Source: Candidatus Krumholzibacteriia bacterium
Lineage (GTDB): Bacteria > Krumholzibacteriota > Krumholzibacteriia > Krumholzibacteriales > Krumholzibacteriaceae
Reading direction: 5' to 3'
Length of the DNA stretch: 64,000 nt
NCBI GenBank assembly: GCA_963836185.1
Contig: CAWIIQ010000001.1
Span: forward strand, 1,216,001 to 1,280,000
Shown one piece after another: positions 6,815-21,838 of the stretch. Position numbers and translations under genes: made by a program. Position 1 is the stretch's first letter. Each line of letters opens with the position of its first letter. A model generated the notes under the pieces. That model saw only the letters and a program-made list of their open reading frames with translations, was not told where the DNA came from and ran no database searches.

Positions 6815-7765
6815 ATGAGGTGCTGCATCGATCTAGGAAGCAGCTACTTCAGGAAGCTCGCTGTTGATGTCGAGAATGGCCCCGATGGGCCGAGTTTCAG
6901 GAATCCTGTTCAGGAGAGAGTATATATCGGCTGGGGTGAGGAGGTCGAACACAACGGGACTATCTCTAAGGAGACCGCAGAGAGTGCCGCTGAGATTCTC
7001 AGGAGACTCACAGGGGATATGACAGGGCGCGCAGGCGTTCATCTGACGGTTGTAGCGACGAATGCGCTTCGTGTCGCGTCAAACCGCGATGAGGTCAGGG
7101 AGTATCTCGAGGATATCGCTGGAGTGGAAATTAATATCCTTTCGGAAAGAGGAGAAGCCCTTCTCGGATTTGCTGGAGCGACATCAGAACTGACTAATGG
7201 TACTCCAGTCATCCTGGTCGATCTGGGAGGAACAAGCACCGAACTCTCATGGGGTTCAGCGCCCGCCGGTTCTGCATTTGTATCTTTGCCGCTGGGAACG
7301 CATTCATATCTTGATCCCGGGGCAGTATCCGAACTGATCGCTGATATCTTCCCGGCATCGGGGATCCCTGTCGGGGATTCACGCTTGCCGGGCTCGAGAG
7401 AAAGTCATACAATCATGGTCACCGGCGGGACCGCTGTCAGCCTTGCGGTCGCCTGGAAACAGATGATCGGCGAAAAATATGATGATGCCGTGTCGATCGG
7501 GATCTCCGCCGACGAGTTCGAGAGGCTCTATGAATGGATCGACGCCTTTTATCTTTCAGGGGCTGAGCAGGAGCTTGCTCTGCCGCTCGAAAGGATAAAG
7601 CTGTTCCTGCCGGGTATGAAGATGCTCAAAGAGTTTTTCAGGGCTCTTCAGGCGGATGGAATGACGATAACCGCCCGCGACCTCAGATGGGGCGTCGTGT
7701 TGGGCGATGGAATAACAGAATGGGGGTACCTTGCCGATGAGCAAGAGAGTCCTGATAGTCGATGA
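6815..7765 (+). CDS. Ppx/GppA family phosphatase (short form)
   Basis: IDLGSS, VATNALR.A.N, ILS...EA, VDLGGTSTELS motifs; start chosen at ATG 6815. Confidence 0.75.
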   Translation: MRCCIDLGSSYFRKLAVDVENGPDGPSFRNPVQERVYIGWGEEVEHNGTISKETAESAAEILRRLTGDMTGRAGVHLTVVATNALRVASNRDEVREYLEDIAGVEINILSERGEALLGFAGATSELTNGTPVILVDLGGTSTELSWGSAPAGSAFVSLPLGTHSYLDPGAVSELIADIFPASGIPVGDSRLPGSRESHTIMVTGGTAVSLAVAWKQMIGEKYDDAVSIGISADEFERLYEWIDAFYLSGAEQELALPLERIKLFLPGMKMLKEFFRALQADGMTITARDLRWGVVLGDGITEWGYLADEQESPDSR

Positions 7766-9113
7766 CGAAGCAAGCATACGGAGCTCACTTGAGAAGCTTC
7801 TTTCCTACGAGAAATATACAACTCTATCCGCGCCCGACGGTCCATCCGCATTGGAGGTAGTGGCCGACAAGAGGATCGACATCGTCCTGCTGGATATCAA
7901 GATGCCGGGTATGGATGGGCTCGAAGTCCTTCAGAAGCTCAAAGAGATGAAAGAAGAATTGCCGGTAATAATCATATCCGGGCACGGAAACATATCCACG
8001 GCTGTCGAGGCTACCAAGCTCGGCGCATTCGATTTTATAGAAAAACCGATAGATCTGGACAGACTCCTGCTTACCGTAAGGAACGGCCTGAAGCAGGGAA
8101 CGTTGAGTCAGCAGAACATCGAACTCCGCGAGAGGATACCGGGCGGCACGGAGATCGTCGGCGAGCATCCATCTATAAAGGAGATACTCGAGACGATAAA
8201 CCGTGTGGCACCGACCAGTGCGAGGGTCCTCGTTATGGGAGAGAACGGAACGGGCAAGGAGCTCGTCGCGAGAAAGCTTCACGAACTCAGCACCAGGAAT
8301 ACCGAACCGTTCATCGAAGTGAATTGCGCTGCTATTCCGGAAGAGCTGATAGAAAGCGAACTCTTCGGCCATGAAAAGGGATCGTTCACCGGCGCTGTCT
8401 CGAAGAGGATCGGAAAGTTCGAACTTGCCGATGGCGGATCGCTTTTCCTCGATGAGGTCGGGGACATGAGCCTGTCCGCCCAGGCGAAGGTCCTTCGCGT
8501 CCTGCAGGAATCCGTGTTCGAGAGGGTAGGAGGGACCGAGACGAAGAAGGTGGATGTCCGTGTAATCGCAGCATCGAACAAGAATCTGCTGGAGGAAGCG
8601 GGCAAGGGGAACTTCAGGGAGGACCTGTTCTATCGGCTCAATGTCGTACCGGTTGAGATGCCCCCTCTGCGGGACCGAAGGTCCGACATCCCGATGCTGG
8701 TATCGCATTTCCTCGATCAGGTCGCAGTCGAACTCGGTGCCGCCGCGAAGAAGGTCGACAAGAAGGCGCTCGAGATGATGGTCGAATACTCCTGGCCGGG
8801 AAATGTCAGGGAGTTGAGGAACCTGATCGAGAGACTCTGCATCCTGACTCTCTCCGATACTATTACCAGGGAAGACATGCCTTCGCTCGTCCTCACCAGG
8901 GAAGAAGATATGATGAAGGATCCGTTCGGCCTGCAGACTTACCAGGAGTTCAGGGACTTTACGGAGAGAGAATTTCTCGTTAAGAAGCTGCGCGAAAATA
9001 ACGGGAATGTTTCGAAGACAGCGCGTCAACTCGGGATGCAGCGCAGTAATCTGTATAAGAAGCTTGAGAAGTACAGCATCGATCTTAGAAGTGATAAAGA
9101 CGAAGAAAATTGA
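7731..9113 (+). CDS. NtrC/NtrX-family sigma-54 response regulator (REC-AAA+-HTH)
   Basis: VLIVDDE/LLDIKMP receiver; GENGTGKE, ESELFGHEKGSFTGA, FLDEVG, WPGNVREL; Fis-type HTH. Confidence 0.95.
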   Translation: MPMSKRVLIVDDEASIRSSLEKLLSYEKYTTLSAPDGPSALEVVADKRIDIVLLDIKMPGMDGLEVLQKLKEMKEELPVIIISGHGNISTAVEATKLGAFDFIEKPIDLDRLLLTVRNGLKQGTLSQQNIELRERIPGGTEIVGEHPSIKEILETINRVAPTSARVLVMGENGTGKELVARKLHELSTRNTEPFIEVNCAAIPEELIESELFGHEKGSFTGAVSKRIGKFELADGGSLFLDEVGDMSLSAQAKVLRVLQESVFERVGGTETKKVDVRVIAASNKNLLEEAGKGNFREDLFYRLNVVPVEMPPLRDRRSDIPMLVSHFLDQVAVELGAAAKKVDKKALEMMVEYSWPGNVRELRNLIERLCILTLSDTITREDMPSLVLTREEDMMKDPFGLQTYQEFRDFTEREFLVKKLRENNGNVSKTARQLGMQRSNLYKKLEKYSIDLRSDKDEEN

Positions 9114-9221: not shown

Positions 9222-9250
9222 TTGACAGCGGCCCTTGCGGAACATATTTT
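9222..9250 (+). promoter_or_regulatory. Sigma-70 type promoter for the small-protein/TPR-activator operon
   Basis: TTGACA-N17-TATTTT in AT-rich intergenic DNA. Confidence 0.5.
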
Positions 9251-9318
9251 TATTCTGTGGGTGTTTAGGGTGTGACGGGTCTTTTTGGGACAGGTCAGTT
9301 CCAGGAGGAGATAAGGTC

Positions 9319-9627
9319 ATGAAGAGAACGGCTCTTCTTATTGCCATTCTGATCGCGTTCTCTCTCACTGCAGTATCGCAGGTCTACGCCTCACCGATAG
9401 CTGGTGAAAAGGCGGTGACCGTTTCCAGCTGGCTCTCATACTATATTGCCAACTTCCTGAGAGCGCATCGCGTTACCGTCGGATATGAAGACGGGCTCAT
9501 CAGCGATGCAGGAGAAAATGAGATACTGCGTGGAGACGCGGATGATTACGCGAATGGTAAAGGGGATATAAAGGATCTCGATCCCATTATTCCCAACGAC
9601 GACAAGAAGATTACGGAACAGGATTAA
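9319..9627 (+). CDS. Small secreted protein (102 aa), candidate signalling pro-peptide
   Basis: Strong RBS AGGAGGAG at 9303-9310; Sec signal MKRTALLIAILIAFSLTAVSQVYA; acidic C-terminal half containing GDADDYANG. Confidence 0.8.
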   Translation: MKRTALLIAILIAFSLTAVSQVYASPIAGEKAVTVSSWLSYYIANFLRAHRVTVGYEDGLISDAGENEILRGDADDYANGKGDIKDLDPIIPNDDKKITEQD

Positions 9628-9690
9628 TTACTAGCGGTCTACTTACGGGCTCTACCGGTAATTCGCCAATTGCCACTTAAGGAGAAACCG

Positions 9691-12600
9691 ATGCCTGACG
9701 GCCCGCAAGGTAAAGAGAATTTCGAGTACGAAAAACACCAGCCGAGGCATAAGTTCAAGTCTACCGGCACCGAGGAAGAACTCGGCGACATGCATCTGTC
9801 GACCGAGAATTACTCGGTTGCGCTGGAATACTATGACAAGGCCCTCCAGAAGGTCCAGACCGCCGGCGGCGGTCCGAGCGACCTCGTAAGAGTCTACAGG
9901 AAAATCAGCGACTGCTATCGAAAGAAGGGATTGCTGCGCGAGGCCATGTCGTTCCTCGACAGCGCCGCGACTCATTGTGATGAAGAGGACCTGATCGGCA
10001 AGGGTGCTATCGCGTGCCGCCGCGGGATCATCCTCTACGAGCGAGGCGACATCAAGCACGGGCTCAGAGAGGCCTGCTCGGCTTACAGGATCCTGCGCAC
10101 GAGCGATGAGCACAGGGAAGTCGCTCACACGCAGCTTCTTGTCGCGAACTGCTATGCCAGGCTGGGGCGCAGCGACGAGGCTGAACAGTATTTCCTCGAT
10201 GCTCTTTCCTCTTACAGGCGTATCGGCGACACGGTCGGTGAGTCATATGTATTGAACAACCTGGGACTGTTTCACAAGAATGCATGTCGCTGGGGCAGAG
10301 CTCTCCAGTTCCTCGGCAGAGCCCTCGAGATCTGCGACGAAGTCGGTCTGACCCAGCACAGGGTCAGGGTCACGCTTAACATGGGCATCGTTCACCTTAA
10401 GAAACGTGACTTCGCGGGAGCGGAGAGCGCTTTTGTCGCGGCCAGGGATATGGCCAGGCGGATCGGCGATGACCTCAAGTATACCAAGTCCACCTTGATG
10501 CTCGGTGTAAAGGAGACAAGAGCGGGGAATCTGCTGGCCGCCGAGAAACACCTGCTCGAGGCACGGGTCACTGCGGAGCGGAGAAATTACCAGCGGGAGA
10601 CCGCTCTCGCCGACGAGTTCATCGGAGACCTGATGCTGGCGAAGGGCGATCTCGAGGATGCCCTCGAAAACTACACCATCGCGCTCAAGTCCGCCTCGAG
10701 ACTCAACCCGCAGGGTGACATTGTCGCTGAGGTTCAGCGCCGGATGATGAATGTCTACCTCGTTCAGAGAAAAGCCGAGGAGGCGCTCTCCATCGGCCGC
10801 CGTGCCATCGAATCGTGCCGCCGCAGCGGAGAGATGCACGAAATAGGATACGTTGAGAGAATGATCGGTCAGGCTCTTGCCATACAGAAGAAAGAGACCG
10901 AGGCCGAAAAACAGATAAACATGAGTATCAGGACCTTCCTGTCGGTCAACAATCCGTACGAAGCTCATAAGTCGGGAGTGATCCTGGGCGAGCAGCTGTT
11001 CCGCAGGGGAGACAGAAGGTCGGCGGTGATGGCGAGGAAACTCGTCAGCGAGACTGTCACGTTCTTTGAAAGGAACGAGGAGTACGCTGATCTGGCGGGA
11101 AGCCATTTCCTCCTCGCGAGGATCGAGGATATCCTCGGCAACAGGGATGAATGCCTGCTGCATCTCTTTGACGCGCAGCGGCTCGCGGAAGAGCTTCACG
11201 ACCGCAACCTGAACAGGCGCCTGCGCAGGATGCGCAGGAAGATAGAGGACGCTGCCGCCGGACCTCACGGGGCGCCGGGCAGGGACTCCTGCCAGTCCGG
11301 TGTGCTGAACGGTACGTTCATGCATGATCCGCAGCTGAAGTCCTATCTGGACTATATTCTCAGCGACCTGATGAGAAATCTCTCGGCAGGTCACGGGTTC
11401 GTCGCGCTGACCGATGGCAAGGGCAGTGAGCCGGTAGTGCTAGCCCGCCGCGGGATCGGGGACCAGGAGACGAAAGCTATCACCGAGTGGTTCCTCACTG
11501 GTGACGACGCCGACACTACCGAGAAATTCCTCGTTACTGATACGATGAACGATCGGCGTGTCAGGGAGATATTCGGACAGCTCCCGGGTGGCGATTCTCC
11601 CGCCTATTTCCATCCTCTCAGCAAGGGAGGCAGGAACTTCGGGCTTCTGTTCTTCCAGTCCGAAGGGAATGAGGGAGCTCCGACCGTCGGATCGATATTC
11701 GAGATAGTGTCGACATACGCCGGATTCATCGATTTCCTCATCAGCGGATCGATCATGGGCGCGCCGCCAGTGCCGGGTGCTGCTGCCGCGAAGAAAGGTA
11801 TCGATGGATTCATAACGAACGACGAGAAGATGCTCAGGATCCTCGATCTGGCGGGCAAGGTCGCGGTGAGCGATTCCACTGTGCTGTTGATGGGTGAGAC
11901 CGGAACCGGCAAGGGCCTTGTAGCCCAGGCGATCCACGATATGAGCAGAAGGCGTAATAAGAAGTATATACATGTGAACTGCGCCGCGCTCCCCGAGATG
12001 ATCCTGGAGAGCGAGCTTTTCGGTCACGTCAAGGGCTCCTTCACCGGAGCGGTGTCTGACAAGAAAGGTCTTCTCGAGGAGGCCGACGGCGGCACGATAT
12101 TCCTCGACGAGATCGGGAAGGCTCCTCTTCCGATACAGGGTAAGCTCCTTCAGTTCCTCGACACGAGAAAGGTGAGACCGGTCGGCAGTAACGAGATGCT
12201 TGCAGTCGACGTCAGGTTGATCTTCGCTTCCAAGGTGGATCTGCTTCAGCTCTGTAGCGAGGGAAAGATGCTCGAGGATTTCTATTACAGGATCAATGAT
12301 TTCCCGTTGACTATCCCGCCGCTGCGTGAACGCAGAGGGGACATTCCTCTCCTGGCGGATTATTATCTGCGCAGCAGTTGCTCCGCAATGGACCGTAAGA
12401 TCATCGGGTTCAGTGATGACGCTGTGGAATTTCTGATGAACTGCGAATGGCCGGGAAACGTCAGGGAACTCAGCAAGATAATCAAGCGTGCTGTCATCCT
12501 GGCCGAGGATAATGGCGTGATAACGCCTCAGCAGCTTGCGTTCGATTTTGCCGGGAAGCCGGAAGAGACGATCAACGACTCAGTGACCTTGCCCGACATG

Positions 12601-12738
12601 GTCAGGGAACTCGAGAGAAAGATAGTCTCGGAAGCACTCGGCGGGAATGAATGGAACAGGAAGGCCGCTGCCGCAGAACTGGGCATCAGCTATCCCACTC
12701 TTCTCAAGAAGATCCGCGATTACGGGATCATCCAGTAG
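9691..12738 (+). CDS. TPR-repeat sigma-54 enhancer-binding protein (TPR - GAF-like - AAA+ - HTH)
   Basis: RBS AAGGAG before ATG 9691; about 520 aa of TPR helices (ALEYYDKAL, YVLNNLGLFH...ALQFLGRALEI); GETGTGKG, ESELFGHVKGSFTGA, FLDEIG, WPGNVREL, WNRKAAAAELGISYPTL; no receiver domain. Confidence 0.93.
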   Translation: MPDGPQGKENFEYEKHQPRHKFKSTGTEEELGDMHLSTENYSVALEYYDKALQKVQTAGGGPSDLVRVYRKISDCYRKKGLLREAMSFLDSAATHCDEEDLIGKGAIACRRGIILYERGDIKHGLREACSAYRILRTSDEHREVAHTQLLVANCYARLGRSDEAEQYFLDALSSYRRIGDTVGESYVLNNLGLFHKNACRWGRALQFLGRALEICDEVGLTQHRVRVTLNMGIVHLKKRDFAGAESAFVAARDMARRIGDDLKYTKSTLMLGVKETRAGNLLAAEKHLLEARVTAERRNYQRETALADEFIGDLMLAKGDLEDALENYTIALKSASRLNPQGDIVAEVQRRMMNVYLVQRKAEEALSIGRRAIESCRRSGEMHEIGYVERMIGQALAIQKKETEAEKQINMSIRTFLSVNNPYEAHKSGVILGEQLFRRGDRRSAVMARKLVSETVTFFERNEEYADLAGSHFLLARIEDILGNRDECLLHLFDAQRLAEELHDRNLNRRLRRMRRKIEDAAAGPHGAPGRDSCQSGVLNGTFMHDPQLKSYLDYILSDLMRNLSAGHGFVALTDGKGSEPVVLARRGIGDQETKAITEWFLTGDDADTTEKFLVTDTMNDRRVREIFGQLPGGDSPAYFHPLSKGGRNFGLLFFQSEGNEGAPTVGSIFEIVSTYAGFIDFLISGSIMGAPPVPGAAAAKKGIDGFITNDEKMLRILDLAGKVAVSDSTVLLMGETGTGKGLVAQAIHDMSRRRNKKYIHVNCAALPEMILESELFGHVKGSFTGAVSDKKGLLEEADGGTIFLDEIGKAPLPIQGKLLQFLDTRKVRPVGSNEMLAVDVRLIFASKVDLLQLCSEGKMLEDFYYRINDFPLTIPPLRERRGDIPLLADYYLRSSCSAMDRKIIGFSDDAVEFLMNCEWPGNVRELSKIIKRAVILAEDNGVITPQQLAFDFAGKPEETINDSVTLPDMVRELERKIVSEALGGNEWNRKAAAAELGISYPTLLKKIRDYGIIQ

Positions 12739-12915
12739 ACCTGTATATTCCGCACATCCGATCGATTCCAGTCATCGTCGCGTATTAATGGTCCAGGCCG
12801 GTCTTTTTGATTTATTTTTATAATAATCGGAGACCGTCCGGCGCCACGATGCGGTCATTTCGACATCCGTCGGCCAGAATGGTTTCCATGAACAATTTCA
12901 TTGTCATTTCAAGAT

Positions 12916-12967
12916 GTTGCCCGGCAACGTATTATGGGTGGCCCACGGGATGTGTAAAGAGTCTTTA
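12916..12967. promoter_or_regulatory. Two palindromes, candidate upstream activator sequences
   Basis: GTTGCC-C-GGCAAC (12916-12928) and TAAAGA-G-TCTTTA (12955-12967), 115-170 bp upstream of a sigma-54 motif. Confidence 0.35.
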
Positions 12968-13082
12968 TCCCGAGTGTATTCCCGCTGCGGGACGTAAGAT
13001 TTAGCGCAAAAGTACTGCTTTGTAACAGATTGAATATGAATGCGTTGCGGTGCATTCGCGCAGACCGGCCGATGCTCCGTTT

Positions 13083-13097
13083 TGGAACGGTGCTTGC
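13083..13097 (+). promoter_or_regulatory. Sigma-54 (-24/-12) promoter
   Basis: TGGAACG-GTGC-TTGC; exact GG-N10-GC spacing, one mismatch to TGGCACG-N4-TTGC. Confidence 0.65.
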
Positions 13098-13108
13098 CTT
13101 TACATATA

Positions 13109-13252
13109 ACCGGTATCGGTTGGCGAATGGGAAGTGGCAAAACCGGAGAGATGCAGAGATTTCGATCCCATAAGCTCTCTTATGAAGCTTGAAATAGGGT
13201 ACAGGTGGGGTCTCTAGGGAATGAAATCTCAAACATCTCTCCGGTAATTTTA
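13109..13252 (+). ncRNA. Candidate sigma-54-dependent small RNA (long hairpin)
   Basis: ACCGGAGAGATG (13142-13153)/CATCTCTCCGGT (13234-13245) perfect 12 bp; nested GAGATTTC (13156-13163)/GAAATCTC (13223-13230) and TCCC/GGGA; followed by AATTTTAT; no substantial + strand ORF. Confidence 0.5.
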
Positions 13253-13322
13253 TATCCGTAAATACCCCTATTATATAATTTAAACTTGACTCTGAGTACC
13301 CCAGAACATTTATACTTAATAT

Positions 13323-13420
13323 TGTCAGGGGTGTAAGATACCTAAGGAATGGCGAGATCCATAGGAATGCGAGTATGGACATCCCCTCCGGTGCTCGCGT
13401 CTTGTGCCCCTGACTTTTTC
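13323..13420 (+). ncRNA. Second candidate small RNA (about 95 nt, closed by a long terminal stem)
   Basis: Upstream TTGACT-N19-TATACT (13286-13316); GTCAGGGGTGTAAGA (13324-13338) pairs with TCTTGTGCCCCTGAC (13400-13414) using G-U pairs, then TTTTT; internal repeats AGGAATG(G)CGAG. Confidence 0.45.
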
Positions 13421-13795
13421 TATCCACGACATTTTCTGAGATAAAGGCGAAGCTGGACCGGCAACCGGTCTGTGCGCAATCGAAGTGCGTGCGGTCCATA
13501 GTAAAGTCTATCCATCTGACCGGACCACGTGATCGACCCTCACAGTCGTCATCAAACCTGTTCCCTTCTGTCCGGTTTCGCCGAGGCGGACGCAATTACT
13601 AAAGTCGTGATCTTGTCCCTTTTCGGGGACGTTTGTGTGGAATAGATACGACAATTCCCGGTGGTGCGTGGGCAGGCGTTGTGCTTTCGGGGAGCAGGCA
13701 CACCGCCCGCCGGCGATTTTTAAAGACCTGCATCTAAATACCTTCCACGATCAATCAAGCATATATCACTACGCATCCGAGGCATCGTACGGAGG

Positions 13796-13810
13796 TGGCA
13801 CGCCAGTTGC
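13796..13810 (+). promoter_or_regulatory. Consensus sigma-54 promoter for the lipoprotein gene
   Basis: TGGCACG-CCAG-TTGC, a perfect match to TGGCACG-N4-TTGC. Confidence 0.8.
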
Positions 13811-13824
13811 GTTTATATATCGAC

Positions 13825-14814
13825 ATGATGAGAGCAGGAAGCGCACATAAAGCATCACAGGTTTTGACAGCGATTCTGATTGCCGGATTTTTGTTCATTT
13901 CCTCCTGTTCAACGGAGGAACAGATCGTGTACGTGCCGATGGAGGTCCCAGCGGATTGTCCTCCATCGGCACCTCGCGGTGTCTACGCGATCAACCTGGA
14001 TGGCTATGTGCAGATACGCTGGATTCCGAACCCCGAGGACGACATCGCGGGTTACGACATATGGAAGAATGACGAGCTCTATGGGACGTATGAGTGGGTC
14101 GATTATGTGCTGGTAGAGGATCCTGAACCTTTCGAATACTACTTTGAGCACGACACTCCGAACGGCCAGAAGTCCTATTACGCGGTATCCGCTTACGACG
14201 TGAATGATAACATGAGCGAGCTGAGCTACGAGGACGTCAGCGCGACGCCGAGGCCGGAAGGATTTCTCACACTTTATGACGAGTCGGTCGAAGCCGATTC
14301 CTGCGGTTACGATTTCTCTTCGCAGAGTAACATCGCGCAGGACTGCTCGCTTCCGACGACAGACATCATGTTTGATACGACCGGCGGGGTCAACCGGTTC
14401 GTGGTCAACATGCCGATCGTCATGATCCAGGATTACGGTTATACATCCAGTTTCGATGATATCAATATCGCTCCCGAGTCCGGCTGGTCCGATGCAGGGC
14501 TGGCCGAAGTCATCGATAACCATTGCTACATAATCAGGATCGGCGAGTCCGACGGCCTGCACTATGTGAAGCTCTGGGTACACACGATTGGGGGCGGTTA
14601 TGTAGATTTCTGGTGGGCATATCAGACGGATCCCGGCAATACGGATCTGATGGAGTCCGCTGGAACCGATGAGTTAACATCCGGTCCGGCAGAGACCGGT
14701 GGAATAAAGGTCATGAACGGTTTTCCAAAAGGTCGACAAGTCCCCCCGACGCTTACAAGCTCGGGTAAACAGGACGATGACAGAATCCTGCAGCGGCAGA
14801 ACACCTTACCTTAA
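13825..14814 (+). CDS. Lipoprotein with Fn3-like domain and beta-rich C-terminal domain
   Basis: Lipobox FISSC; PPSAPRGV...IRW.PN.E.DIAGY.IW...YYAVSAYD...SELS Fn3 pattern. Confidence 0.8.
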   Translation: MMRAGSAHKASQVLTAILIAGFLFISSCSTEEQIVYVPMEVPADCPPSAPRGVYAINLDGYVQIRWIPNPEDDIAGYDIWKNDELYGTYEWVDYVLVEDPEPFEYYFEHDTPNGQKSYYAVSAYDVNDNMSELSYEDVSATPRPEGFLTLYDESVEADSCGYDFSSQSNIAQDCSLPTTDIMFDTTGGVNRFVVNMPIVMIQDYGYTSSFDDINIAPESGWSDAGLAEVIDNHCYIIRIGESDGLHYVKLWVHTIGGGYVDFWWAYQTDPGNTDLMESAGTDELTSGPAETGGIKVMNGFPKGRQVPPTLTSSGKQDDDRILQRQNTLP

Positions 14815-14859
14815 GCTGGCACTTAAATAAGGTTTCCGTTACCCGGAAGGTCGACCGAA

Positions 14860-14926
14860 GGGGAGAGTGAAGAAAGCGATTGCTGAACAGGGGCGGCAAG
14901 AGATCTTCACTCTCCCCGACTTTTTT
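14860..14926 (+). terminator. 14-bp stem with 30-nt loop followed by a U-tract (terminator or 3'-UTR structured RNA)
   Basis: GGGGAGAGTGAAGA (14860-14873)/TCTTCACTCTCCCC (14904-14917), then GACTTTTTT. Confidence 0.6.
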
Positions 14927-14981
14927 ATCAGCCCGCATTTGACTTGATGAGTCCCGGACATCAACTTATTATTCGTCAGAC

Positions 14982-17900
14982 ATGCGTATACCTGTTTCGT
15001 TCATAAGGATCACCACCGCCGCTATAGCGGCGGCAGCTTTTTACGGAGCCTTGGCCCCGGTACAGGGAGCCTTTGCCTATGGACCTGAGATGAACAGCAT
15101 TCCGCGCATGCCGAAGGGCCGGCCGGCCGGTGTTTACCAGCAGCAGGCGATATCCGGCCTCCTTGCCGGCAGTTTCGACGCGCCGGATACCCTTGAGCTT
15201 CTTGTAATACGTGTAGCCTTCTCCGATATGGATTTTACATCTCCTCCTCACGATTCGCTCTATTTCGCCAACGAGATGAGGCACACCTGGGAGTATTTCA
15301 GGGGAGCATCCATCGGGGCGTTCGGCCTTGGCTGGAAGATAGCGGCAGGCGTCACAACGCTCAGTTTCGAAGCGGCATACTACGGTGATGATGACCTGTG
15401 GGAGGAGAGGGTATCGGAGATCCTCATGGAGGTGGTTGCGGAGAATGACGACGAGATAGATTTCTCGCGATTCGACGCTTTTGCCATTATCCATCCGGGA
15501 GCCGGCCAGGAGACCGACTTCTCGGGCGATTCTCCCTGGCAGCTCTGGTCGGGCTTTATCGATCCGGTCGAGATGGATGCTGTGCTGGCCGATACACTTG
15601 GGACCCCGGGGGTGCCCACGAACGATCTCATCGCCGGAGATACATTTTACGTCGACAACGTGATGGTCCTGCCGGAGAACGCCTCGCAGGACGGATTAAC
15701 ATTCGGCTCTCTCGGGATCTACGCCTATCAGGTCGGAATGCGTCTCGGATTGATCCCGATGTACGACACGACACCGTCGGGTTATCCCGATTCACAGGGG
15801 ATAGGAGCGTTCGGCCTGATGGGGTACGGCCTGTACAATGCTTCAGGCTTTATACCGGCTTTTCCCTGCGCGTTCCATCGATACCTGATGGGATGGACGG
15901 AGCCGGTGACTATAGATGCTGACGGCAGTGTCGATGTGGTTGATATAAACTCGTCGATGCCGGCGGATACATCGCTGGTAAGGATAGAGATCAGCCCTAC
16001 CGAATATTTTCTCATCTCGAACAGGGTGCACGATAAAAACATGAACGGCCGTTTCGATTTCGGCGATGTGAACGGCGACGGCATCCCCGCTAACGAGGAC
16101 ACTCTTCTAGGTGCCGAATTTGATTTCTTTCTCACCGCGACGACAAACCCTTTCCACTACGAGGATATCAGCGGCGAGCAGGTCAAGGTAGTCGATACCG
16201 GAAGCGGTATCATGATCTGGCATATCGATGAGACTATTATCAGGAACCAGCTCGGCATAGGGCGCTACCCCAACGACAATCCGGGAATCAGCGGCGTCGA
16301 CCTCGAGGAAGCGGACGGCGTACAGGACCTCGACCGTCCGGGCGGGAGCTATGCCTTCGGCGGCTGGGGGGATTCATACAGGGACGGCTGGTACACCGAG
16401 TTCGGGCCGGAGACGATACCGGCGAGCCTCAGCAACACTGGAACTCCGACAGGCCTGACCCTGTCGACCGATTCGCTTCCGGGCCCGGTGATGAACATCT
16501 CTATCGAGTCGGGAGAGGAACTTCCCCGTGTTACGGGCGAGATCGACGGGACAGTGATGAACCTTTCCCCGGTCGTTGCCCAGCTGGATGGCGACGTAGA
16601 ATATGAGCTCATACAGGCTGCCGATACAGGCAGGATATATATCGCGTGGGATGCCGGTGCCCAGGCGTGGGACGGCTCTTTTGATCTGGTCGTGGATATA
16701 CCGGGAGCCGCGTGGTCGGGTACGCCTGTCGCGGCGGAGCTCGATGGAACTCCTCCGATGGAGATCCTTGCGGGATCGCGCGACGGCAGGATACATGCTT
16801 ACCGGACTGACGGCTCTCCGTATCCGATCGATACCGGACCTTCACCCGGCTCGCTTGAGGTAAAGGGCGAGATCGTCAGTATGCCGATAGCTTTCGAGGC
16901 AGATGGAGATCCCGGTCTGGAGGTAGCGTTTCTCGTCTCTGATGGTGATACATCATGGATGTATCTCGTCGGCCATGCTGATGCGAATGATCTGGACGGT
17001 TTCATCGCTGGCGATGGGGTGTTTGGCGCGCTCATCAGCCCCAGCAGGGTGATCGCTCATCCGGTCCTCTGCGTCGATGATGCCGGCGCCGGCTCAGGCG
17101 GATTCTGTACCGCGGTGACTGATCCTGATGGTCATCTGAGCTTTATGCATATCGAGATGATGTACGGTCCCCCGGGAATGAGCCTCACTTCATGGAGCAT
17201 GACAGGGACTTACGGACTGGAAGATCTGCTGCAGCCCGCTTCGGGAGATATCGACGGAAACGGGACGGATGATGTCATCCTCGCGATTCCGGATGGGGAT
17301 ATCTTCTATATCGATATATCGAGAGGTATTGAGACTTCATCGATCACTCTGGAAAGGCCATCTTCGCCATCTCTCGCCGACATCAACGGCGACGGCACGC
17401 TTGAGACACTCATACGCGATCGCGGCCGCCTCTTTCTTCTGACTGGATTCGGCACCCTGGTATCCGGATGGCCCCTGCAGCTCGAAGAGTATCTCGTGAA
17501 TGTAGAACCCGATACTACCCCTGCCCAGCCGGTGGCGGCCGATGTGGACGGGGACGGGGAACTGGAGGCAGTCTTCAATGTCGCCGGCGAACTGAGGGCG
17601 TATCGATATGACACCAGGCTCGAGCAGGGATGGCCCATAAGGGGAGAAGGGGACCATTCGATCTCTCCTGCCTTTTCACCGGGGGCGGGCTCGAAGATGT
17701 TCATATACACCTCTGGCGGTTCAGGCGGGATAGCCGGGGCCGATCAGACAGGAATGGTTTTCTTTCCCGGAGTCTCGACGGTCTCAAGGATCGATCCGGG
17801 AATCGTGTGGGAAGCCGCGGGAGCCTGGCCGGCATACCGTCTGAATGCGTTCGGCACAGCCAGGCAGGCAATGTCCGGGGGCGATGTCCAGGGCGGGCCT

Positions 17901-18188
17901 CTGGTCGACGGGAACTCGATGATCTGCTATCCGAATCCCGCGACAGGTTATTCTTTCAATCTCCGCCTTAATGTCTCGGAAAAGGCCGATGTGACTGTCA
18001 GGCTGTTCAATCTCGAAGGGACGGAGGTCTATTCCTCCACAGCGACGCATGAGTGGAGCGGCGACGTGCCGTTCGAGACTGCGGTCCCGGTCGGCGGACT
18101 GGCAAGCGGTATATATCTCTGCCATGTGAGGGTACAGGGCGGGGGCGAGGACTGGAGCGGTTCGAGAAAGGTCGCGATAATAAGGTAG
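14982..18188 (+). CDS. M6 (immune inhibitor A)-like domain lacking HExxH + FG-GAP repeats + T9SS-type C-terminal domain
   Basis: IIHPGAGQE, GIGAFGLMGYG, EYFLISNR, GIMIWHIDE, VDLEEADG M6 motifs; DIDGNG/DINGDG/DVDGDG repeats; YPNP...SGIY...KVAIIR. Confidence 0.8.
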   Translation: MRIPVSFIRITTAAIAAAAFYGALAPVQGAFAYGPEMNSIPRMPKGRPAGVYQQQAISGLLAGSFDAPDTLELLVIRVAFSDMDFTSPPHDSLYFANEMRHTWEYFRGASIGAFGLGWKIAAGVTTLSFEAAYYGDDDLWEERVSEILMEVVAENDDEIDFSRFDAFAIIHPGAGQETDFSGDSPWQLWSGFIDPVEMDAVLADTLGTPGVPTNDLIAGDTFYVDNVMVLPENASQDGLTFGSLGIYAYQVGMRLGLIPMYDTTPSGYPDSQGIGAFGLMGYGLYNASGFIPAFPCAFHRYLMGWTEPVTIDADGSVDVVDINSSMPADTSLVRIEISPTEYFLISNRVHDKNMNGRFDFGDVNGDGIPANEDTLLGAEFDFFLTATTNPFHYEDISGEQVKVVDTGSGIMIWHIDETIIRNQLGIGRYPNDNPGISGVDLEEADGVQDLDRPGGSYAFGGWGDSYRDGWYTEFGPETIPASLSNTGTPTGLTLSTDSLPGPVMNISIESGEELPRVTGEIDGTVMNLSPVVAQLDGDVEYELIQAADTGRIYIAWDAGAQAWDGSFDLVVDIPGAAWSGTPVAAELDGTPPMEILAGSRDGRIHAYRTDGSPYPIDTGPSPGSLEVKGEIVSMPIAFEADGDPGLEVAFLVSDGDTSWMYLVGHADANDLDGFIAGDGVFGALISPSRVIAHPVLCVDDAGAGSGGFCTAVTDPDGHLSFMHIEMMYGPPGMSLTSWSMTGTYGLEDLLQPASGDIDGNGTDDVILAIPDGDIFYIDISRGIETSSITLERPSSPSLADINGDGTLETLIRDRGRLFLLTGFGTLVSGWPLQLEEYLVNVEPDTTPAQPVAADVDGDGELEAVFNVAGELRAYRYDTRLEQGWPIRGEGDHSISPAFSPGAGSKMFIYTSGGSGGIAGADQTGMVFFPGVSTVSRIDPGIVWEAAGAWPAYRLNAFGTARQAMSGGDVQGGPLVDGNSMICYPNPATGYSFNLRLNVSEKADVTVRLFNLEGTEVYSSTATHEWSGDVPFETAVPVGGLASGIYLCHVRVQGGGEDWSGSRKVAIIR

Positions 18189-18296
18189 GATACTGATACA
18201 GGAGAATAGATGCCCCGGCCGGCTCCCGAAGCAGACGCCGGCATTAAAGCCCACGGGTGTTGATGTTGACCCGGGAGGCTTTATTTACTACAATAT

Positions 18297-19244
18297 ATGG
18301 AGATGGCTATGAATGGAGGAAAGATGTCCCGCAAAATGGTTCTGCTGGCCGCAGCAGTATTGATGACTATGACGACTTATGCCTCGGCTGGCGAACCGGG
18401 CTCATCCGGCTTCACGTTTCTCAGGCTTGGAAACGGAGCGAGGGCCGGTGGTATGGGTGAGGCCTTTACCGCCGTAGCGGACGACGCGACCAGCATCTAC
18501 TGGAACCCCGCAGGTATGGTGGGCGTCGAGGAAGTCGAGCTGAACCTTACGCACAACGAGTGGCTGATGGATATAAGGTTCGAGCAGATCACCGTAGTGA
18601 ACGAGATGTGGGGCGGTGCCGCGGGACTCAGTTTTACAGGCCTCTATTACGGCAGCATCGACAGGTACGGCGAGTACCCGTCGCTGACACCTGACGGCAC
18701 TTTCTCGCCATACGACATGGCGCTCTCGCTCGGATATGCCAGGGATATCATTCCAAATCTCGCATTAGGAGCGGCCTTCAAGATAATATACTCAAAAATC
18801 GATTTCGAATCGGCGACCGGATACGCGTTCGATCTGGGAGTGACGCACAGGTCGAAGATCGAGGGCCTGATCCTCGCGGCATCAATGCTCAACCTCGGCC
18901 CCCAGACCAGCTTTGTCGAAGAGAAATTCTATCCTCCATTCCAGCTGAGGCTGGGCGGCGCCTACGAGATCAGGAAGGAAGCCCTTCACGGCGGCCTGAT
19001 CCTTGCCGCGGACGTAGTCTTCCCCAACGATAACGACGCGAAGGCTCATTTCGGCGTCGAGTACGCATACCAGAAACTGCTGATGGTGAGGTTCGGCTAC
19101 AAGAGCGGGTATGATGTCCAGGGGGCTACAATGGGCGCCGGCATCGCGTGGAAGAGCCTGAGGTTTGATTACGCCTATATGCCGATCGATTTCGAGCTTG
19201 GCGATGCTCACCGGTTCTCGCTGACCGTATCACCTTCGCTCTGA
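18297..19244 (+). CDS. PorV/PorQ (UPF0164)-family outer membrane protein
   Basis: FLRLGNGARAGGMGEAFTAVADDATSIYWNPAG signature; HRFSL near the C-terminus. Confidence 0.88.
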   Translation: MEMAMNGGKMSRKMVLLAAAVLMTMTTYASAGEPGSSGFTFLRLGNGARAGGMGEAFTAVADDATSIYWNPAGMVGVEEVELNLTHNEWLMDIRFEQITVVNEMWGGAAGLSFTGLYYGSIDRYGEYPSLTPDGTFSPYDMALSLGYARDIIPNLALGAAFKIIYSKIDFESATGYAFDLGVTHRSKIEGLILAASMLNLGPQTSFVEEKFYPPFQLRLGGAYEIRKEALHGGLILAADVVFPNDNDAKAHFGVEYAYQKLLMVRFGYKSGYDVQGATMGAGIAWKSLRFDYAYMPIDFELGDAHRFSLTVSPSL

Positions 19245-20776: not shown

Positions 20777-21649
20777 GTGAATAGGATGTACCCGGAAGGA
20801 AGAGATAGCGAGTACCTGGGCGAGAAGAGTCTCGATCTCTACCTGAAAGAAATCAACAACACTTCTCTTCTCACTCGAGAAGAGGAAAGAGATCTTGCTG
20901 AAAGAATCAGGGAGGGACAAGAGGAAGCGCTTCACGCTCTGGTAAAGGCGAACCTGAGATTCGTAGTATCCATAGCGAAGCAGTATGTCAACCAGGGCCT
21001 GTCCCTTGCGGACCTCATTAACGAGGGAAACATGGGGCTTATCAAGGCAGCCCACAGGTTTGACGAGAAGAGAGGCTTCAAGTTCATCTCCTATGCAGTA
21101 TGGTGGATCAGGCAGGCAATGCTCCAGGCTCTGGCCGAGCAGTCCCGTATAGTACGTCTGCCGCTGAACCGTGCCGGCACCCTTTACAGGATCGGCAAGG
21201 TTTCCAGGCAGCTCGACCAGGAACTCGGGAGGACGCCCGAGGTCGAGGAGATCGCGGAGAAGCTCAACCTGTCCAAGGAAGAGGTCAGGGATACGATGCA
21301 GATAGCGAACAGCCATCTGTCCCTCGACGCGTCCTTCAATAATGACCAGGAAGAGAATTCTCTCGTCGATTATCTTGCCGACGATACGCAGGCGCCGCCT
21401 GATGAGATGACGTATTCCAATGCCCTGAGCGATGATATGCAGAAAGCCCTGAGCACCCTTACCGACAGGGAACAGATCATTCTGGGCCTGTACTTCGGGC
21501 TTGAGGGCGAAGAGCCTCTCACACTCGAGGAAATAGGGCAGAAAATGAGCCTGACGAGGGAAAGGATCCGTCAGATCAAGGAAAAGGCGATTCTGAGGCT
21601 GAGGCACAGCACCAGGAGTAAATATCTCCAGGGATACGTAGAAAGCTAG
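20777..21649 (+). CDS. RpoD/SigA-family sigma-70 factor lacking region 1.1
   Basis: SLDLYLKEI (1.2), NLRFVVSIAKQY...ISYAVWWIRQ (2), TLEEIG...TRERIRQI (4). Confidence 0.93.
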   Translation: MNRMYPEGRDSEYLGEKSLDLYLKEINNTSLLTREEERDLAERIREGQEEALHALVKANLRFVVSIAKQYVNQGLSLADLINEGNMGLIKAAHRFDEKRGFKFISYAVWWIRQAMLQALAEQSRIVRLPLNRAGTLYRIGKVSRQLDQELGRTPEVEEIAEKLNLSKEEVRDTMQIANSHLSLDASFNNDQEENSLVDYLADDTQAPPDEMTYSNALSDDMQKALSTLTDREQIILGLYFGLEGEEPLTLEEIGQKMSLTRERIRQIKEKAILRLRHSTRSKYLQGYVES

Positions 21650-21678
21650 ACGTATCAACAAGATAGATGAGTACCCGA

Positions 21679-21718
21679 GGTGGGGAGGAGTCGTGAGACC
21701 CCTCCCCGCCCTTTTTTT
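21679..21718 (+). terminator. Rho-independent terminator
   Basis: GGTGGGGAGGAGTC-GTGA-GACCCCTCCCCGCC followed by T7. Confidence 0.75.
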
Positions 21719-21838
21719 ATGTGTGCCTGGTGGTACGTGATTTGCAGAAAAAAGGGCGGTAAATACTCCTTGACAGGGAGTAGGCTCGAACGTAGGTTCT
21801 GGTATCAACGGGAATCATTTAACGCTTCGACCGGAAAA

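Follow-up and report, generated by a model that had tools for sequence, protein, structure and literature searches.

Can a diderm bacterium sense a processed peptide inside the cell through a regulator that works with sigma-54? The question is raised by an operon in a 64,000-nucleotide stretch of DNA from a Candidatus Krumholzibacteriia bacterium (contig CAWIIQ010000001.1, positions 1,216,001 to 1,280,000; G000:C1:1216001-1280000 in our numbering), here called the window, whose source genome is ~3.5 Mb in size and 92.5% complete. The operon encodes a predicted Sec-exported mini-protein and an enhancer-binding protein fronted by tetratricopeptide repeats (TPR); sigma-54 promoters, structured RNAs and a lipoprotein gene follow. 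An earlier model-made note on the sequence, referred to below as the original prediction, described a peptide-sensing circuit with an input like that of RRNPP systems and an output like that of Vibrio LuxO-Qrr. Comparison with related loci in Krumholzibacteriota genomes leads us to a reading in which the mini-protein is the source of a processed peptide ligand for the TPR-fronted regulator, which would have one RNA as its output and be subject to feedback; we put its probability at roughly 45%. If true, this would add a hitherto undescribed kind of circuit to peptide signalling.

A conserved mini-protein and activator gene pair

The coordinates given in the original prediction for the operon promoter (9222-9250), the 102-amino-acid (aa) open reading frame (ORF), the 63-bp gap, the 1015-aa activator, the two -24/-12 promoters (P1 at 13083 and P2 at 13796) and the lipoprotein gene all hold, and the operon anatomy of mini-protein ORF, 63-bp gap and TPR activator ORF is present and conserved across Krumholzibacteriota. 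The operon promoter (+ strand) is predicted to be of the sigma-70 type (TTGACA-17-TATTTT, 10/12 consensus), and a TTTGAC box lies at the same place in relatives. A TPR profile search finds a match in 203/208 phylum genomes and in 125/125 of good quality, although a few weak best matches may be paralogues; the activator locus is a core, single-copy gene in the phylum.

The expectation that a small signal-peptide ORF would consistently adjoin homologous activators is borne out. Such an ORF lies 30-119 nt upstream of the activator in 38/38 loci of a first set and is present in 42 of 49 further loci, the remaining seven comprising four without room for it, two with frameshifts and one in which it was not found (80/87 in total). 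The same arrangement recurs in paralogous loci: 37 of 40 have room upstream, and the mini-gene is found in 36 of these, one of them cut by a contig end, which leaves one orphan receptor. The source genome itself contains a second pair (G000:C2:222682-226785, L194), with the motif ADPGEDPHL and an 818-aa activator whose arginine finger is intact; a lipoprotein-like ORF follows. Across the 40 paralogous loci no -24/-12 site occurs within 900 nt downstream, bar two weak 9/12 matches. Another sigma-54 activator, of 1543 aa, is encoded at G000:C1:968535-973166; it has TPRs and a long N-terminal region, and no mini-gene is evident next to it.

A tree of 69 AAA+ domains, from which rows without a full domain were excluded, resolves a main clade (support 100/100) with GD[AP]D-type motifs in the mini-protein, a clade with [AGS][DE]PGEDPHL motifs (99/97) and a third with variable [GA]EPG..P motifs (99/96), so that each of the three supported receptor clades has its own motif class. 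The proposed covariation of small protein and TPR is upheld to this extent; because kin share labels, the match shows co-inheritance rather than co-evolution. No description of the mini-protein/TPR-activator architecture was found in the searched full-text literature, which consisted mostly of papers outside subscription and was covered by titles and abstract openings. The locus is real, phylum-wide and apparently undescribed.

The putative exported mini-protein and its acidic motif

The mini-gene (9319-9627, + strand) encodes a predicted signal peptide (residues ~1-24), a helix (29-51) and an otherwise disordered chain; the AlphaFold2 model contains only helices 2-18, in the signal, and 29-51. 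A conserved acidic motif, the candidate ligand core, falls in the disordered region at residues 70-81 (L-R-G-D-A-D-D-Y-A-N-G-K; 9526-9561, + strand), its centre reading GDADDYANG. Residues G72, D73, A74, D75 and G80 are invariant in 31/31 order-level mini-proteins, and the motif is conserved at the protein level, because its codons vary synonymously among relatives while these residues do not. The motif has a mean identity of 82%, against 21% for the remaining mature chain and 63% for the TPR region. All 80 complete mini-proteins satisfy heuristics for a basic n-region, an h-region and an AxA-like site, and all 80 contain an acidic Gly-Asp motif; a hydrophobic stretch or helix is present in 79, preceding the motif in 41 and following it in 38. 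Motifs in other families include GDADGLSG, GDPDDIIxGN, GDPGDAGDG and similar strings. Atlas matches to the mini-protein are all below 0.9. Family-5 peptide-binding proteins are encoded in the genome.

The mini-gene leader (9255-9318) contains a G-rich block conserved order-wide and, in many relatives, a small hairpin just 5' of the Shine-Dalgarno sequence.

The TPR-fronted activator

The activator gene (9691-12738, + strand) encodes a bacterial enhancer-binding protein (bEBP) of the order TPR-GAF-AAA+-helix-turn-helix (HTH). Pfam matches and an AlphaFold2 model (mean predicted local distance difference test score 80.9) place TPR hairpins at residues 27-522, a GAF-type alpha/beta domain at 547-689, Sigma54_activat at 708-873 and HTH_8 at 971-1011. 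A TPR input in place of a receiver domain had been proposed; the TPR part stands, but the GAF-type domain had been overlooked. The bEBP hallmarks of Walker A and B motifs, a GSFTGA loop and an HTH are present, RpoN is encoded in the genome, and no transmembrane segment is predicted in the activator (maximum KD19 1.53). Among the 25 best NCBIfam matches listed, no family reaches its cut-off. One 855-aa orthologue (G037, L061) is without the GAF region and retains both the mini-gene and P1.

The best matches of the TPR profile are to the TPRs of Pins/LGN and kinesin light chain (E values down to 4e-18), with weak matches to Rap structures as well (3e-7 to 8e-6). TPRs of the Pins/LGN and kinesin-light-chain type bind extended or linear acidic peptides. 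Nine TPR residues are invariant (R176, R177, K196, R200, N230, K237, R302, R350 and R351), and the near-invariant polar set is rich in Arg, Lys and Asn; these basic and Asn residues would suit an acidic peptide ligand. When residues 25-525 of the TPR part and residues 60-91 of the mini-protein, each with an alignment, were modelled as a complex, the score was 0.02 (mark 0.32; controls not folded), which speaks neither for nor against binding.

A sigma-54 promoter, RNA1 and predicted feedback

Behind the activator gene, promoter P1 (13083-13098, + strand) matches the sigma-54 consensus at 10/12 positions. Its enhancer, the palindrome TRTAAA-N5-TTTAYA (12953-12969), lies 130 bp 5' of the -24 box, and a match of at least 10/12 occurs at -121 to -131 in 23/25 order-level loci. 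Among 362 sigma-54-like sites in the genome this enhancer type is essentially unique, scoring 22.8 bits against 11.5 for the next site with a matrix that includes its own site. P1 recurs in 32/36 loci examined, and P2, further downstream, in 24/29 loci with at least 1.1 kb of downstream sequence; the two -24/-12 promoters thus represent more than chance matches. In one genome (G004), P1, its enhancer and RNA1 have moved intact behind an inserted gene. A P1-type site before the operon was considered as a basis for autoregulation and rejected, as it is not conserved.

P1 precedes RNA1, a structured RNA of ~145 nt (13110-13254, + strand, ends inferred) with a single-stranded 5' seed (13112-13140), a long covarying stem and a U-rich tail. 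The hairpin of this region (13125-13260) has a z-score of -6.0. In 20 sequences, 19/21 stem pairs show double changes, a number reached by 0/500 shuffles and far above slid controls. The loop at 13203-13214 is invariant, its core being present in 22/23 class-level loci, and a search with the RNA1 model picks up divergent copies in families f3 and f6. Neither RNA1 nor the neighbouring RNA2 has a match in Rfam. An identity with 6S RNA was rejected, as 6S is located elsewhere (C1:1727883), and a CsrB-type sponge with GGA words was rejected in view of the lack of a CsrA match in the genome. Neither Hfq nor CsrA was found in the 92.5%-complete genome.

RNA1 is predicted to pair with the start codon region of the activator and with the leader of an envelope operon. 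The translation-initiation region of the activator (9661-9695, + strand) is complementary to the RNA1 5' end, with a 10-bp helix over the AUG (9686-9695) and a 9-bp helix 5' of the Shine-Dalgarno sequence (9670-9678; 9661-9669 is an alternative). Among 2946 start regions, obtained by crude ORF calling that includes false ORFs, the activator start ranks second by RNA1 helix length and is the sole ATG start with a helix of at least 10 bp over the codon. The RNA1-activator pairs beat at least 190/200 shuffles in 19/24 order-level and 3/7 class-level cases. Family f3 has a rewritten RNA1 5' end, and 4/5 f3 RNAs favour f3 targets; family f6 has a third sequence solution, which in 7/8 loci is a perfect 10-mer spanning +7 to +16. 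The pairing is predicted and covarying in three lineages and not evident in others.

The second predicted target is a 14-nt complement of the RNA1 loop, found on contig C2 in the leader of a gene for a secreted protein, in an envelope/outer-membrane operon. This site, which is distant from the ribosome-binding site, is kept in 9/9 orthologues of the first gene found by protein search, with a helix of at least 12 bp in 6/9 versus 1/250 background windows; two of the substitutions allow G-U pairing. A similar leader with the site occurs in five more genomes, which were found by pattern and are thus not independent; in four of these genomes a gene of the CarboxypepD_reg type follows, probably encoding a TonB-dependent receptor. 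A loop site before an outer-membrane protein gene (C1:2111925) was rejected as a conserved target, being absent in 4/4 homologues. Genome counts of the loop complement exceed those of a reversed control and were not used, because this word is frequent in coding sequence too.

A sediment RNA run contains 5% of the words. Its contigs, mostly those of relatives, cover 9355-9584, 9623-9813 and parts of the activator and lipoprotein genes, and have zero depth in the bin containing RNA1; contigs of this kind reveal neither transcription nor strand or level.

A second promoter and a probable second activator

Promoter P2 (13796-13811, + strand) matches the consensus at 11/12 positions and is one of 14 sites with this score in the 3.5-Mb genome. 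Palindromes had been noted downstream of the activator gene in the original prediction; they are present, and that at 13614-13631 is the P2 enhancer, which had not been recognised as such. The enhancer region (13614-13652; YGTCC-N8-GGACR) consists of this palindrome, at -182, and a weaker second site. Matches of at least 9/10 occur in 21/24 P2 regions and in 0/32 P1 regions. The proposal that one activator serves both promoters is not supported by this comparison: because their enhancers differ, P1 and P2 probably answer to two activators.

The candidate for the second is the NtrC/NtrX-like response-regulator bEBP encoded immediately upstream of the operon (7737-9113, + strand; Pfam Response_reg, Sigma54_activat and HTH_8), whose RxD finger is intact. 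In 72/76 loci such a gene is found no more than 2.3 kb upstream of the mini-gene, with RxD in 71 of the 72; in G035 and G040 it is slightly more distant upstream, on the same strand of the same contig. Loss of this regulator in family f5 was considered as a natural experiment and rejected, the gene being present slightly further upstream. The two regulators have different HTH sequences. P1 would be served by the TPR protein and P2 by the adjacent NtrC/NtrX-like regulator, and it is more likely the latter to which P2 and the lipoprotein, M6-like and PorV genes answer.

A -24/-12-like site also precedes an LptF/LptG-like permease gene (G000:C2:330309, - strand, L195; name read from the sequence) and is accompanied by a strong enhancer of the P2 type, which suggests that the second activator has a small regulon of envelope genes.

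Proposed mechanism and alternative explanations

In the proposed mechanism, the mini-protein would be exported by the predicted Sec route and cut so that the acidic motif is freed; the peptide would then be re-imported, presumably by an Opp/Dpp-type permease, and bind the TPR groove. The peptide-bound regulator would act at P1 rather than P2, and RNA1 would be made. RNA1 in turn would damp translation of the regulator and pair with the leader of the outer-membrane operon. What the peptide reports in a diderm may be proteolysis in the periplasm of the same cell rather than cell density. If this is true, a conserved, multi-channel peptide/TPR pair combined with sigma-54 extends intracellular peptide signalling to the diderm plan, with a new output.

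Several observations weigh against this mechanism. The precursors are 91-120 aa long, typically ~108 aa, and 100 aa or less in just 5/80, where validated RRNPP propeptides have 21-50 aa. Not every motif is followed by a basic residue, the locus lacks a dedicated gene for a protease or permease, and a near-invariant motif across a whole order at a single-copy core locus is unlike kin-specific pheromones. As for the feedback, the activator start ranks 76th of 2946 by whole-duplex energy, the pairing is not evident in 4/7 class-level genomes, most f4, f5 and f8 loci have no such helix at the activator start, and the mean self helix across 23 class-level loci (8.6) is slightly above the off-diagonal mean (7.9). 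The related loci, moreover, are not independent samples.

The near-invariance of the motif at a single-copy core locus and the absence of import or protease genes there would also be expected of an export monitor, in which stalled Sec export or envelope biogenesis lets unexported precursor accumulate in the cytoplasm, where its motif binds the TPR directly and neither processing nor re-import is involved. The outputs and neighbours of the locus are envelope and type IX secretion system (T9SS)-type genes, and a precedent exists in VasH, reported to be bound by cytoplasmic Hcp (PMC10482370). We nevertheless consider such a monitor unlikely, in that several paralogous pairs per genome, with differing and fast-changing motifs, and an orphan receptor resemble separate channels rather than one gauge. 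About equally improbable is an indirect link, whereby the mini-protein acts in the periplasm or membrane and signals through a transducer, or is merely co-transcribed, while the regulator senses something else via GAF. The hydrophobic helix in 79/80 mini-proteins and the GAF domain of the window's activator speak for it, but the GAF-less G037 orthologue still has the mini-protein and P1, and no transmembrane transducer is linked; motif classes also track receptor clades, though shared descent alone can yield that. Least probable is the original prediction in full, with one activator at both promoters and RNAs that depend on Hfq as Qrrs do: both promoters are conserved directly behind the activator, but their enhancers differ, P2 and the lipoprotein gene have become detached in G035, G040 and G037 while P1 remains with the TPR gene, RNA2 is under a sigma-70-type promoter, and Hfq and CsrA are missing from the genes found.

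A further alternative concerns the output logic and forms a separate axis, compatible with peptide sensing: the TPR protein may not stand alone but form a hetero-hexamer with the NtrC/NtrX-like regulator, so that peptide and phosphorylation are both required, or act as a DNA-bound repressor. It arises from the ATPase site, read from an alignment with ZraR and NifA. PMC3419264 defines RxDxxxR as the arginine-hand motif, with R162 as the arginine finger of PspF, the R162A change nearly abolishing ATPase activity. Here the motif reads LEDxxxR in 72/72 orthologues, with L861 in place of the first arginine, and the equivalent of PspF R122 is Q821 (Q or H in 71/72), so that the family is short of two trans-acting arginines of the bEBP ATPase site; the activator also has ASK where ATN is usual. 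Among the paralogues the first arginine is seen in 38/40, the other two being unmatched by the pattern. Because all 72 orthologues are without the R162 equivalent, function as a solo activator is uncertain, which counts against the main mechanism as well. An intact, syntenic bEBP in 72/76 loci and the HrpR/HrpS hetero-hexamer (PMC3105312) favour a partner. Set against these are the GSFTGA/GAFTGA-type loop, kept in 63/72 orthologues, the invariant Walker A and B motifs, D863, R867 and sensor II, and the differing HTH sequences and enhancers. According to PMC3419264, PspF R162K stays active and NtrC1 is proposed to use the second arginine (NtrC1-R299, PspF R168) as finger; its equivalent here, R867, is retained and invariant. 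Since R162K leaves PspF active, the invariant K848 could compensate for the lost arginine. The activator may thus be compensated by K848, dependent on the adjacent intact regulator, or a repressor; partner dependence is possible, with the odds against it. A natural bEBP family without the PspF arginine finger bears on the unsettled question of the catalytic arginine.

The peptide-ligand reading can be extended to a phylum-wide class, in which TPR-fronted sigma-54 regulators would bind acidic peptides, specific to each clade, that are released from exported mini-proteins; its core member would be an arginine-finger-less subunit that integrates peptide and phosphorylation, free of Hfq, through one base-pairing RNA controlling envelope operons and its own synthesis. 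This extension is speculative, and we think it more doubtful than the mechanism at the locus itself.

Comparison with known peptide-sensing and sigma-54 systems

Intracellular peptide-receptor signalling is presented as a Firmicutes trait in PMC10075063 and PMC9765709. The RRNPP systems (Rap-Phr, NprR-NprX, PlcR-PapR and AimR-AimP) share with the present locus an adjacent small Sec-type precursor gene and a predicted cytoplasmic TPR protein, as well as paralogous pairs with differing peptide motifs and an orphan receptor. In PMC10075063, the RRNPP definition comprises a propeptide of 10-100 aa (validated 21-50), a receptor of 250-500 aa and genes -60 to 400 bp apart, and both sources describe receptors with an N-terminal HTH or three-helix bundle and a C-terminal TPR. 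The likeness to RRNPP holds for adjacency (63 bp here, 30-119 bp in 38/38 loci), for the signal peptide (by heuristics, 80/80) and for the TPR itself; it fails for propeptide size (102 aa), receptor size (1015 aa) and architecture, in which an N-terminal TPR is followed by GAF, AAA+ and a C-terminal HTH. The precursor gene moreover lies upstream of the receptor gene, the motif is internal and accompanied by a hydrophobic helix, the host is a diderm, and the TPR resembles Pins/LGN and kinesin light chain more than it does Rap.

At the output, Vibrio LuxO-Qrr offers a bEBP, a sigma-54 promoter before a small RNA (sRNA) and sRNA feedback on translation of the bEBP (PMC3262071); the present locus has the first two and, by prediction in some lineages, the third. 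This half of the analogy also holds in part, since the activator has no receiver domain or phosphorelay and scores 228.5 bits against a LuxO cut-off of 800, and RNA1 is unrelated to Qrr by Rfam, in a 92.5%-complete genome in which no Hfq was found. The locus thus resembles RRNPP at the input and LuxO-Qrr at the output, yet belongs to neither. The general features of a sigma-54 system, namely RpoN, a -24/-12 promoter and an upstream enhancer, are all present, the assignment of each enhancer to a protein being putative.

Other sigma-54 activators are also linked to sRNAs under their control, as in the CbrB-CrcZ gene order and in enterobacterial GlrR-GlmY. In Pseudomonas, CbrB is described as driving the CrcZ sRNA. 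These sRNAs are protein sponges under two-component control, whereas RNA1 shows base-pairing signatures. In the Vibrio cholerae pair VasH-Hcp (PMC10482370), a secretion substrate binds a bEBP in the cytoplasm, as an export monitor would have it here; Hcp, however, is a type VI secretion system tube protein without a signal peptide, and the accessible text describes no TPR sensor for VasH. The Pseudomonas syringae HrpR/HrpS pair (PMC3105312) likewise involves two adjacent bEBP genes, with subunit specialisation; HrpR and HrpS are tandem paralogues, whereas the putative hetero-oligomer here would join a receiver-domain bEBP to a TPR-GAF bEBP.

The locus yields candidate ligands of 9-12 residues, two defined enhancers and three RNA elements without Rfam families, which seem to work without Hfq.

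Further RNA elements and neighbouring genes

RNA2 (13324-13419, + strand) is a three-way-junction RNA of ~95 nt with two invariant loops, one of them anti-Shine-Dalgarno-like, and is order-restricted by motif. Its region (13318-13425) folds into a hairpin with a z-score of -4.4, and in 23 sequences 15/33 pairs show double changes, which 0/500 shuffles reach; the original prediction of structured hairpin RNAs is thus supported for both by covariation. Its claim that both are sigma-54 outputs fails for RNA2, which has its own sigma-70-type promoter (13286-13316, + strand; TTGAC-N16-19-TAnnnT) in 21/23 loci; the spacer here is 19 nt, and a stock promoter scan missed it. Pairing of RNA2 with the mini-protein ribosome-binding site is not supported (rank 1343/2946). 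A loop-loop pairing of 7-8 bp with RNA1 is possible, is broken in G038 and is a lead only. In three loci (L033, L034 and L036, of G003, G005 and G008) the 3' half of RNA2 is tandemly duplicated directly behind the gene.

The lipoprotein gene behind P2 (13825-14814, + strand) encodes 329 aa with the lipobox ISSC (Cys28) and a fibronectin-III-like N-terminal part. It matches no Pfam or NCBIfam family; its Atlas look-alikes, some named FN3, score 0.95-0.97. Because the ATG lies ~15 nt past the -12 box, the P2 transcript would be nearly leaderless (13796-13825), and no Shine-Dalgarno sequence precedes the ATG in this genus. RNA3 is a structured element over the 3' end of the lipoprotein gene and its 3' untranslated region (UTR) (14730-14925, + strand), with a terminal hairpin (14850-14930, z-score -4.7), an invariant G-rich loop and complementary blocks. 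It is conserved in 17/26 loci with enough DNA and in 0/7 class-level loci, and is possibly a 3'-UTR-derived RNA.

A gene at 14982-19244 encodes an M6-like protein with a T9SS-type C-terminal domain and YQVGM at the expected HExxH; it matches the model 'T9SS-dependent M6-like inactivated metalloprotease' below cut-off. The gene after it belongs to the PorV/PorQ family, above cut-off. The stretch 20777-21746 includes a gene for a group-2-like sigma-70 factor and, behind it, an 11/12 sigma-54 site at 21731; of the genes after this site, one has no Pfam family and one is of the AMIN-amidase-LysM type.

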